Source: a virus
DNA length: 64,000 nucleotides
Virus genome (UHGV): UHGV-0134996
Direction: 5' to 3' (one strand)
Positions 15,943-18,982 of this stretch are shown here, in pieces. The notes beneath the pieces are model-generated. The model was not told where the DNA came from. It did no database searches and saw only the letters and a program-made list of their open reading frames with translations. Position 1 is the first letter of the stretch; each line of letters opens with the position of its first letter. The position numbers and the translations under genes were made by a program.

Positions 15943-16120
15943 GCATCCCCCTTACCCATGCGCGACGATGCCGCCAAAAGTGATAGAGAACAGCCAGAAA
16001 TAGATCGCGGCCATAATGATTTTGAATGCCGTGTTCATATTTTCAGCTCCTGTGATTGATTGGATACATGCCGCGCCTTGCGGCATGTTTTTATTTTCAC
16101 TTTCTCTGTTTTAAAAATCA

Positions 16121-16137
16121 AGATTTATTAGAGCAAT
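16121..16137 (-). promoter_or_regulatory. C1 operator-like 17-mer (16/17)
   Basis: Plus strand agatttattagagcaat; overlaps stop codon of HAD gene. Confidence 0.65.
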
Positions 16138-16643: not shown

Positions 16644-16716
16644 ATGCCCTCCTCATTGGACGAAAAAAATGCTGGTGGGACGCACTCCACCAGCATTAAA
16701 AGTGACACTGTAACTA

Positions 16717-17979
16717 TCAGCGAACGTAAATAGTGCCGCCGTTCTCTTTTTCCCATGCATCGCTACGTGCATAGCAAACATCGAGAAGTCTTCTTGCCGC
16801 TGTTTCCTCTAAACCCAATTCGACAACCAACTGCTCATGACGGCGGGTAACCACATCAAACAGGGTATGCAGCCCTTTATTGGCCAGTTCATCAATGAAT
16901 TCCGGTTCGAACGGTAGCTCTGCATCTGCCAACATAACCTCTTGCGCCCACTCGACACGGCGGACCAGTTCCGGGCGGCGGCTTTCCATCTCTTTACAGA
17001 TCATTTCATGGAAGAACTCTACCCAACCTTCCGGCTGGAACTCGCGGAAAATGGCCAACGGCTGGAAGTTTGGCATCAACCATTCGTTGATACGTATATC
17101 AATGGCATAGCCCATGTCGCAGCAGAACTGATAAGCAAAGTCCAGCTTAGAAACGATATAAGGACGCTCGTTATTGAACTCTTTAGGCGATGAGATCCCA
17201 TAAGCCAGGAGGCGCGGGAAGAATGAGATTTGCCCTAACGTCGGATGGAGTTTGCTTGCAGGGAAACGGCGCTCAGTAATGCCATACATTTCCTTCTTGA
17301 GCGTCGCAAATTTGGCGTTTTCATTAACCAGCTCGGTAACCTCTGCTTTTTTATTAGCAAATGCCACGCGCGCCTCGCTTGCATCTTTAATAGCCTTTTT
17401 GAGCTGTTGGTTAAGGTCGACAATCTGCTTACGCAGTTCCTGTCGCTCGCTTTTGGCTTTGTTATAGCGTTTCTCAAGGTTAAAAGGATCAAGTTTCATG
17501 ATCTCTTTATATTGAGATTTTAGAGTTGAAATCTGTGAGTTCCGCAGCACAACCATCGCGGTCATTTCATTGAGTTTTGTTTCCAGCTCAATGCTTATAC
17601 GTTCGGCATTATCAGCACGCTGGTTGGCGTCATGCGTCGCATCTTCGATCGCGTCCTGTTGCTGGCGTTTCAAATGTTCAATTTCCAGCTGAAGCTCTTC
17701 AATTTCTTTACCCTTCAGACCGAGATCCAACTGCATATTTTCAGCTGCATCTACCAGGGAGTTATGGCTATCAGCTTCTGCGTTATAAACATCAATAAGC
17801 TGTGCGTGAAGCATCTCCGCTGACTGAACCGCATTATCAAAAAAACGTGCTGTGAGGTCATCACAACTAACGCGGCGTTGCGCGGCCCGGATGTTCTGGA
17901 TAATGGCCGGGATACCGGCATTCAGGACATCAGGGATAGATACATTTTCGATTGATTGGTTTTGTGCTGAAGTGCTCAT
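16717..17979 (-). CDS. Coiled-coil protein with ~190-aa C-terminal globular domain, function unknown
   Basis: 420 aa; heptad-rich N-terminal 230 aa. Confidence 0.45.
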   Translation of the reverse strand: MSTSAQNQSIENVSIPDVLNAGIPAIIQNIRAAQRRVSCDDLTARFFDNAVQSAEMLHAQLIDVYNAEADSHNSLVDAAENMQLDLGLKGKEIEELQLEIEHLKRQQQDAIEDATHDANQRADNAERISIELETKLNEMTAMVVLRNSQISTLKSQYKEIMKLDPFNLEKRYNKAKSERQELRKQIVDLNQQLKKAIKDASEARVAFANKKAEVTELVNENAKFATLKKEMYGITERRFPASKLHPTLGQISFFPRLLAYGISSPKEFNNERPYIVSKLDFAYQFCCDMGYAIDIRINEWLMPNFQPLAIFREFQPEGWVEFFHEMICKEMESRRPELVRRVEWAQEVMLADAELPFEPEFIDELANKGLHTLFDVVTRRHEQLVVELGLEETAARRLLDVCYARSDAWEKENGGTIYVR

Positions 17980-17980
17980 T

Positions 17981-18199
17981 TCAAAGTTCCGTATTAGCTT
18001 GTGCTTCGGTCATTTTTCCTAAGTATGAAGGAGGAAGGACTACGCAATTTGTATCCAGTCCCTCACCTATGGCAGCCTGTAAAATTCTGGCTAAGGTGAG
18101 TCTCTTGTTGCGATACCTGGTGATGACATGCCTGATACCGCCGGTCGGCGTAACAAAGGCGATCAGCCAGTAGTGATATTTCCGTCGGAATGGCCACAT
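17981..18199 (-). CDS. Small hypothetical protein
   Basis: 72 aa ORF abutting the 420-aa gene. Confidence 0.3.
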   Translation of the reverse strand: MWPFRRKYHYWLIAFVTPTGGIRHVITRYRNKRLTLARILQAAIGEGLDTNCVVLPPSYLGKMTEAQANTEL

Positions 18200-18213
18200 A
18201 GTGCACCTTGTAG

Positions 18214-18230
18214 ATTGCTCTAATAAAAAA
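18214..18230 (+). promoter_or_regulatory. C1 operator-like 17-mer, inverted orientation (14/17)
   Basis: attgctctaataaaaaa on plus strand. Confidence 0.45.
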
Positions 18231-18254
18231 CGTGATGAGTGTACATCACGTTTT
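18227..18254. terminator. Bidirectional intrinsic terminator hairpin
   Basis: aaaacgtgatg-agtgta-catcacgtttt, A/T runs on both sides; follows the glycosyltransferase operon. Confidence 0.6.
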
Positions 18255-18262
18255 AAAAATAT

Positions 18263-18279
18263 GGAATTATTAGAGCAAT
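18263..18279 (-). promoter_or_regulatory. C1 operator-like 17-mer (14/17)
   Basis: Plus strand ggaattattagagcaat. Confidence 0.5.
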
Positions 18280-18280
18280 A

Positions 18281-18982
18281 TTATTCTGATTCTCGCTCAA
18301 AAAATGAGCTGATAAGGGGAAGCCAATCCTCTGACACTTCGCGAGGTCGCGGTTTGCCGTGGAAAAAGATTATTCGGCAGTCTTTTGGTAATGCCCCATT
18401 CCCCCTGGAGTAACGCGCGCTCGCATATTTTGAACCTGGTTCCACAACATCGGCCTTGTAACTTACAAACCATCCTGGATACAGATCCTGAAATGCTGGT
18501 GTATCATCGCCCATAACCTTTCGTAAGAACCCCTGATCACCCCAGCATTCAGTAGTAACACAACGAGCAATCCAACCTTCCGGATCTTGCCAGAATGCAC
18601 TCCAGATATGCGCTTTTACACTATTTGGTATCCACAGGGCACCGCTGCCACGATATTGTGGATGGTAAAAATCCCTAAGCATGGTGAAGCTGGTTGGTGG
18701 ATGCTCTAGGATTGGGCGTATATCACCGGCAATAACCGTGTCCAAATCCAGATAGAACAGATCATCGGTTATATCCGGTCGGAACAACTCTATTTTCGCC
18801 CACCAGCCACGGCACTTTTGCCACTGGTTGATCAATGGGACAACTTTGACGCCAGGTACATGTAAACGCTTCAGGTCTGTCAGGCAAATAATTTCATAGC
18901 CTTTTGGCAGTTGATTAACCAGCCACTGCACATCGGAAGCGTTATAGTCACCACCAGAGCGAAAAACTAAAGCAATCTTCAT
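18281..18982 (-). CDS. GT8-like (GT-A fold, retaining) glycosyltransferase
   Basis: 233 aa; DxD motif [12 protein letters not shown]; H..G.KP motif IFFHGKPRP as in LgtC/WaaJ-type GT8; no TM segment. Confidence 0.5.

Follow-up and report, generated by a model that had tools for sequence, protein, structure and literature searches.

A putative sense-strand terminator with an embedded candidate promoter between the inverted C1 operators of the Op86 region in a P1/P7-type phage-plasmid

The closest described systems are found in phages P1 and P7, whose GenBank records (AF234172, AF503408) place two inverted 17-mers ahead of pmgR and pmgS: OpmgRa and OpmgRb in P1, and Op(sht[a]) and Op(sht[b]) in P7. 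C1 binding sites are annotated in both records at exactly these two 17-mer positions, and the P1 record AF234172 says of OpmgRa/OpmgRb that the pair "controls expression of pmgR and pmgS". A literature search on Op86/OpmgR found nothing relevant. Herein, we describe the same locus, with the same flanking genes and the same inverted 17-mers, in virus genome UHGV-0134996. The window, that is, the whole stretch of DNA that was analysed, is 64,000 nucleotides long. In the Op86 region its operators show no difference from those of P1 and P7, whose sequence is the same as that of the P1-type majority.

The operon boundary and its C1 operators

Over positions 17000–19500, the window is 98.8% identical to phage P7 and 98.2% identical to P1. 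The same region is also matched in about 20 P1-like phages and in 687 plasmid records, mostly from Escherichia and Salmonella. Judged by these matches, the window is a P1/P7-type phage-plasmid. The order of transcription on the minus strand is pmgN, pmgO, pmgP, ppp, pmgQ, the 66-bp element studied here, pmgR, pmgS and pap. This strand carries all annotated genes for kilobases on either side, with the exception of gene 26, which lies about 3.7 kb to the right and points away. In the order of transcription, the features of the locus are:

18281–18982, minus strand: pmgQ/hdmD, the last gene of the pmgN-pmgQ operon (ORF list and P1/P7 annotation)
18263–18279, minus strand: Op86a (OpmgRa in P1, Op(sht[a]) in P7), ATTGCTCTAATAATTCC, oriented as transcription
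18227–18254, minus strand: stem-loop, with 5' arm AAAACGUGAUG (18254–18244), loop (18243–18238) and 3' arm CAUCACGUUUU (18237–18227)
18222–18230, minus strand: U tract, UUUUUUAUU, directly 3' of the sense stem and inside Op86b
18214–18230, plus strand: Op86b (OpmgRb in P1, Op(sht[b]) in P7), ATTGCTCTAATAAAAAA, in the opposite orientation to Op86a
18204–18209, minus strand: Shine-Dalgarno sequence AAGGTG of pmgR, read directly from the DNA
17981–18199, minus strand: pmgR/shtA, 72 aa, the first gene of the downstream unit (ORF list and P1/P7 annotation)
16717–17979, minus strand: pmgS/shtB, 420 aa, the second gene of the pmgR-pmgS unit
16668–16697, minus strand: terminator-like hairpin in the gap between pmgS and pap, 11 bp, -18.1 kcal/mol, followed by T5

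The stop codon of pmgQ (TAA) occupies 18283–18281, and Op86a starts one base further. The pmgQ product matches PHROG 1962 'glycosyltransferase' with E = 6e-128, while a Pfam search with PmgQ/HdmD gave no match; the 'glycosyltransferase' label comes only from the name of the PHROG family. One Salmonella PmgQ homologue carries the annotation 'phosphohydrolase'. Deletion of pmgQ in P1 is reported to be non-essential. The gene pmgR is essential in P1 (PMC9024508). For PmgS, Pfam returned only a sub-threshold coiled-coil (TPR-like) match. Together, pmgR and pmgS appear to form a two-gene unit with terminators on both sides, and pap looks like a gene that is reached by read-through only.

The element is the boundary between two operons, pmgN-pmgQ upstream and pmgR-pmgS downstream, each of which has its own C1 operator (Op83 and Op86, respectively). 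The initial annotation, made from the letters of the sequence, had taken the site for an insulator between a glycosyltransferase operon and the downstream operon, allowing separate repressor control. The insulator part of this description agrees with the operon boundary, with the terminator anatomy and with the two compensatory changes reported below, whereas the only backing for the word glycosyltransferase is a PHROG family name. Control is separate in that each operon has an operator of its own, but the repressor, C1, is the same for both.

Read on the plus strand (18214–18279, 66 bases), the full element is ATTGCTCTAATAAAAAACGTGATGAGTGTACATCACGTTTTAAAAATATGGAATTATTAGAGCAAT. The C1 consensus of P1, ATTGCTCTAATAAATTT, is an asymmetric 17-bp sequence, and Op86a and Op86b each match it at 14/17 positions. 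The three mismatches of each operator are confined to the variable last four positions, and the core matches at 13/13 positions in both. Eleven sites in the window have three or fewer mismatches to the consensus, compared with 0.33 expected, and none of 100 shuffles reached 11. By position and sequence match, both 17-mers are the C1 operators already annotated in P1 and P7; the two operator-like 17-mers that had been noticed at the outset, one in each orientation, are therefore Op86a and Op86b of those records.

No C1 homologue was found within the 64-kb window. The c1 gene is expected just outside it, since the window starts inside an ant-like gene, which in RCS47 lies between pacB and c1. 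Positions 1–1232 match RCS47, JL22 and 673R5; P1 instead has c1 directly after pacB. In the RCS47 record, an extra ant-like antirepressor gene is annotated in the pacB-c1 interval. An operator-like site, TTTGCTCTAATAAATTG, is present at 1212–1228 of the window.

Structure, strand and conservation of the hairpin

The initial annotation had also pointed out a hairpin with an 11-bp stem and A/T runs on both sides. This hairpin is indeed present at 18227–18254 and folds at -13.4 kcal/mol. Its stem begins 26 nt past the pmgQ stop codon and is made up of four A-T pairs and a 7-bp core with four G-C pairs, closed by a loop of 6 nt. The z-score of the fold is -6.6 on the minus strand and -5.0 on the plus strand, and none of 200 shuffles was as stable. 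On the plus strand, the neighbouring runs are A6 to the left and T4 followed by A5 to the right. On the sense strand, the T6 run after the stem is invariant across all lineages. In RNA of the plus strand, the P1 type offers no more than UUUU before A5, and JK004 lacks a U tract.

A standard terminator scan of the window did not list the hairpin at 18227–18254, presumably owing to the rule by which it counts T residues behind a stem. Our own scan for a hairpin followed by a T tract detected it on the minus strand only and not on the plus strand, as one of four minus-strand candidates at or below -10 kcal/mol in the 64 kb. An Rfam search with the element gave only a spurious miRNA match (E = 0.79). 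Over the 16 kb inspected in the P1 record, no terminator is annotated at this hairpin or anywhere else. This is uninformative, since the record lacks such annotation even for the textbook hairpin at 16668–16697, between the pmgS stop codon and the start of pap.

Relatives of the element were gathered by protein searches with PmgR and PmgS, from 80 IMG/VR loci anchored on PmgS, and by motif scans. They comprise five lineages: the P1 type, Salmonella plasmids, IMG/VR contig L142, Cronobacter phage JK004 and metagenome contig L212. All five have the 66-bp layout, and its spacing does not vary among them. A contig scan with PmgS gave only two near-identical loci, a megablast search of the JK004 region against plasmids gave no match, and a metagenome scan added a single JK004-like contig. 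Distant PmgS-like proteins (about 20% identity) from Citrobacter and E. coli plasmids were dropped, their gene context being different. The Citrobacter freundii plasmid NZ_CP115618.1 (L209, 2501–3802) encodes a PmgS-like protein that is about 21% identical across its full length and bears the annotation 'RNA polymerase alpha C-terminal domain-containing'. In phage D6 (L213, 3392–3489), ppp is present and is followed directly by a pdcB-like gene, with the block of pmgQ, cassette, pmgR and pmgS absent. Since D6 has ppp without the pmgQ-pmgR-pmgS block, the cassette lies at a module boundary. The D6 intergenic region has an inverted repeat of its own, GTTAGAA..TTCTAAC, and no C1-type operator occurs in the examined locus.

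Positions 1–15 of Op86a are invariant among the 21 distinct variants of the five lineages. Core positions 2–13 of Op86b are kept in the lineages that came from the protein search, in which the adjoining leader is fully diverged. The operator cores are invariant in JK004 and in the Salmonella plasmids, which a protein search and not the motif had brought up, while the flanks of these conserved cores, namely the spacer next to Op86a and the pmgR leader, have diverged from lineage to lineage. The distance from operator to operator is 40 bp in every lineage. One P1-type contig, L055 (IMGVR_UViG_2744054872_000006, approximately 2200–2265), carries C in place of T within the otherwise invariant Op86b core (ATTGCTCTGATAA, operator strand); it additionally has a C-to-T change in the stem, which leaves a G.U pair on the sense strand.

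Compensatory double changes were found at 2 of the 11 stem pairs in the 21 variants, one from G-C to A-U and the other from A-U to G-C. Across the distinct variants, 97.0% of the stem cells are paired on the sense strand versus 92.6% on the antisense strand, and none of the register-shifted controls exceeded 72%. The RNAalifold consensus recovered the same stem. Thirteen G.U cells pair on the sense strand only versus three on the antisense strand only; counted as independent events, L055 included, at least nine are sense-compatible versus three antisense-compatible, a difference that is suggestive but not significant. Three variants break the pairing on both strands. The clearest strand asymmetry is that of JK004 and L212, where the sense strand folds at -14.8 and -14.9 kcal/mol, respectively, versus -5.8 kcal/mol for the antisense strand, and where the antisense T run is lost. 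The covariation evidence is drawn from only about five independent lineages, and the double changes could equally be explained by symmetric changes in the half-sites of a palindromic DNA site. On the evidence of these alignments, selection appears to act on the hairpin as an RNA structure of the sense strand. It looks like a one-way intrinsic terminator for the pmgN-pmgQ operon, acting on the sense strand. With so short a core (7 bp, four G-C pairs), termination may be partial.

The pmgR-pmgS promoter and a proposed mechanism

The hairpin shares its DNA with candidate promoter elements of the downstream unit, which are:

18273–18278, minus strand: annotated -35 of PpmgR, TTGCTC, inside Op86a (a 'predicted' sigma-70 promoter in the P1 record AF234172)
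18250–18255, minus strand: annotated -10 of PpmgR, TAAAAC, in the 5' arm of the hairpin
18261–18266, minus strand: alternative -35, TTCCAT, weak, overlapping the last four bases of Op86a
18238–18243, minus strand: alternative -10, TACACT, which is the hairpin loop (TATCAT in other lineages)

The annotated PpmgR has the geometry TTGCTC/17/TAAAAC. Its -10 is not conserved, reading TGAAGC in JK004 and TGAAAC or TAAAGC in several P1-type contigs. The annotated -10 is suspect because it is destroyed in JK004, a viable isolated phage, even though pmgR is essential in P1 (PMC9024508). The alternative promoter has the geometry TTCCAT/17/TACACT. In other lineages its -35 reads TTTTAA, TTTTAC or TTTCAA, and TATCAT, the -10 found elsewhere, is a 5/6 match. 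Loop positions T1, A2 and T6, the most informative positions of a -10, are invariant, while the other three loop positions vary between lineages; the chance of this pattern, if the unchanged trio were random, is about 1 in 20. Sigma-70 scoring ranked the alternative promoter first in five of six sequences and second in the sixth, with hexamer weights that were approximate and good for ranking only. Both candidate promoters are weak matches. The -10 of PpmgR is probably misplaced in the P1 record.

Two further candidates were rejected. For an Lpa-type late promoter before pmgR, no -22 box was found on the minus strand from about 21930 to 14135. A plus-strand promoter with the TTGCTC of Op86b as its -35 has no acceptable -10 after it. 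Since the function of pmgR is late (morphogenetic) and no Lpa-type box is nearby, some read-through from the late promoter LPpmgL is possibly needed, which would argue against a tight terminator.

Expression across the junction can be followed in RNA-seq data from P1vir (preprint 10.64898/2025.12.28.696737, Table S1). At 10 and 20 min, the log2 fold changes were 5.94 and 8.08 for pmgQ, 7.96 and 9.36 for pmgR, 8.21 and 10.04 for pmgS, and 5.52 and 8.08 for pap. The signal rises from pmgQ to pmgR, although pmgR is three times shorter, and it falls after pmgS. These steps are consistent with a promoter at the element and a terminator after pmgS. As gene-level fold changes, the values are silent on termination at the Op86 hairpin. 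CRISPRi data are likewise uninformative on polarity across the junction, because the pmgR knock-down itself was scored as non-essential.

We propose that the 66-bp element, that is, the Op86a/Op86b region, is probably a sense-strand terminator with the pmgR promoter embedded in it and with C1 on both sides. The minus-strand RNA AAAACGUGAUG-UACACU-CAUCACGUUUU, followed by UUUUUUAUU, would be the intrinsic terminator that ends the transcripts of the pmgN-ppp-pmgQ operon. The sigma-70 promoter of pmgR-pmgS would share the hairpin DNA, using as its -10 either TAAAAC in the 5' arm or, more likely, the loop TACACT/TATCAT. Whichever -10 is used, the start of transcription would fall within the loop or on the 3' border of the stem. 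The RNA made by pmgR-pmgS itself would thus be without the 5' arm of the hairpin and would escape the terminator. C1 bound to Op86a would cover the -35 region, and C1 bound to the inverted Op86b would sit on or just downstream of the start site. Relative to the predicted start, Op86b lies at about +13 to +29 with the annotated promoter, or at about +1 to +17 with the alternative one. In the lysogen, the promoter would be blocked from both sides, and read-through from upstream would be road-blocked by C1. When C1 is inactivated, the promoter would fire, and the hairpin alone would separate the units, limiting read-through from pmgQ. The pmgR-pmgS unit would be closed by the strong hairpin at 16668–16697. 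In this scheme, we infer termination, the start site and the role of Op86b, and C1 binding is taken from annotation.

A more specific form of the proposal is offered tentatively and is, in our view, possible though somewhat doubtful. It holds that the loop TACACT/TATCAT (18243–18238), and not TAAAAC, would be the working -10, so that one 28-nt palindrome would stop transcription as RNA and restart it as DNA. The inverted C1 operators are then predicted to cover about -49 to -33 and +1 to +17. If this were true, P1-like phage-plasmids would carry a self-contained 66-bp stop/restart cassette of fixed spacing, conserved over those of Escherichia, Salmonella and Cronobacter.

Other readings of the hairpin were weighed against the proposed sense-strand terminator. 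The initial annotation had called the terminator bidirectional, with an operator on either side for independent repressor control. A perfect palindrome that folds at -13.4 kcal/mol on each strand in the P1 type, placed between an A run and a T run, invites that description. However, the plus-strand RNA offers only UUUU before A5, and our scan made no detection on that strand; no plus-strand gene heads towards the site; the antisense fold of JK004 and L212 weakens to -5.8 kcal/mol, with the antisense T run gone; and antisense pairing, at 92.6%, is below the 97.0% of the sense strand. A terminator in both directions is therefore very unlikely, and we favour a one-way terminator because the U tract (U6) is on the sense strand only, because JK004 and L212 are so asymmetric (-14.8 versus -5.8 kcal/mol in JK004), and because no gene converges on the site. 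The symmetry could alternatively matter in the DNA itself, as a site for a dimeric protein or as a cruciform or bendable element that joins the C1-bound operators, the likeness to a terminator being incidental. C1-mediated looping is known at the c1 operators, no lineage departs from the 40-bp spacing of the operators, and the two 'compensatory' changes would also be what a coordinated change of half-sites produces. Yet it is the pairing that is conserved and not the half-site sequence, three one-sided changes in JK004 and L212 break the DNA symmetry but keep G.U pairs on the sense strand, the U6 tract after the stem is invariant, and no candidate binding protein is known. We consider a role as a DNA palindrome quite improbable.

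An RNA element of a different kind was also considered, one that protects the 3' end of the pmgQ mRNA or serves as an RNase III target uncoupling the two messages. The whole 66 nt folds into a two-tier structure on either strand (z = -8.0), and in read-through RNA the extended structure, with 13 bp from the operator repeats and 11 bp from the stem, reaches -26.9 kcal/mol. Its outer stem, however, is invariable and so offers no covariation evidence, and C1 binding already explains its conservation. It could moreover form only in RNA that is already past the terminator, and the U tract directly after the inner stem indicates termination. Such a processing or stability element is hardly to be expected here. 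The opposite possibility is that the hairpin has no terminator function, that read-through is free, and that the palindrome is a by-product of an AT-rich promoter between inverted operators. The modest stem core would fit this, as would the late need for pmgR combined with a nearest late promoter, LPpmgL, upstream of the hairpin, and CRISPRi gives no polarity information here. Two double compensatory changes and 97% pairing over five lineages in which the spacer and leader have diverged are nevertheless difficult to ascribe to a by-product, and 0/200 shuffles fold as well. We regard the absence of any terminator function as highly improbable.

Comparison with known systems

The P1 and P7 records describe the same operators; a -10 centred on the loop fits the element better than the annotated TAAAAC. 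A close parallel in P1 is Plpa with its operator Olpa (formerly P94/Op94). This promoter drives the late activator gene lpa under the control of C1 and Bof, and its entry in the P1 record does not carry the word 'predicted'. There, too, the operator is oriented with the promoter, and the -35 lies at operator positions 15–20 and the -10 at positions 37–42, as in the alternative pmgR promoter. Plpa differs in having only one operator, with no hairpin between it and the start site, and its hexamers, TTGCTA and TATTAT, match better.

A second parallel is OpmgT (Op88) of P1, which corresponds to positions 16121–16137 (minus strand) of the window. Its first 30 nt follow the pattern ATTGCTCTAATAA..TTTTTAAAAC, as does the Op86a side, and it too starts immediately at the stop codon of the gene before it. 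By this likeness, the Op88/OpmgT and Op86a sides may be paralogous operator-promoter modules. OpmgT differs in that it is a single operator and in that a nearby hairpin (16066–16088) has its T run on the opposite strand. That hairpin lies in the pmgT leader and is G+C-rich, with 10 bp and -15.3 kcal/mol; its T run is on the plus strand, against the genes.

In conclusion, the essentials of the Op86a/Op86b region were known before, and to read its hairpin as a terminator is a routine step. With operators that are annotated already and a terminator at an operon boundary that is routine, there is little import beyond P1 biology. Mildly new points are a specificity for the sense strand, a -10 that is probably mis-annotated and a promoter that would be nested within a terminator. 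These points may be of use in P1 phagemid engineering and in the interpretation of polarity in P1 knock-down and knock-out screens. Compared with enterobacterial Rho-independent terminators, the hairpin is alike in its stem-loop and U6 tract 26 nt past a stop codon and in pairing kept by covariation. It differs in its short core (7 bp, four G-C pairs), which is extended by four A-U pairs, in a U tract that is part of an operator, and in hairpin DNA that holds the -10 of the next promoter.
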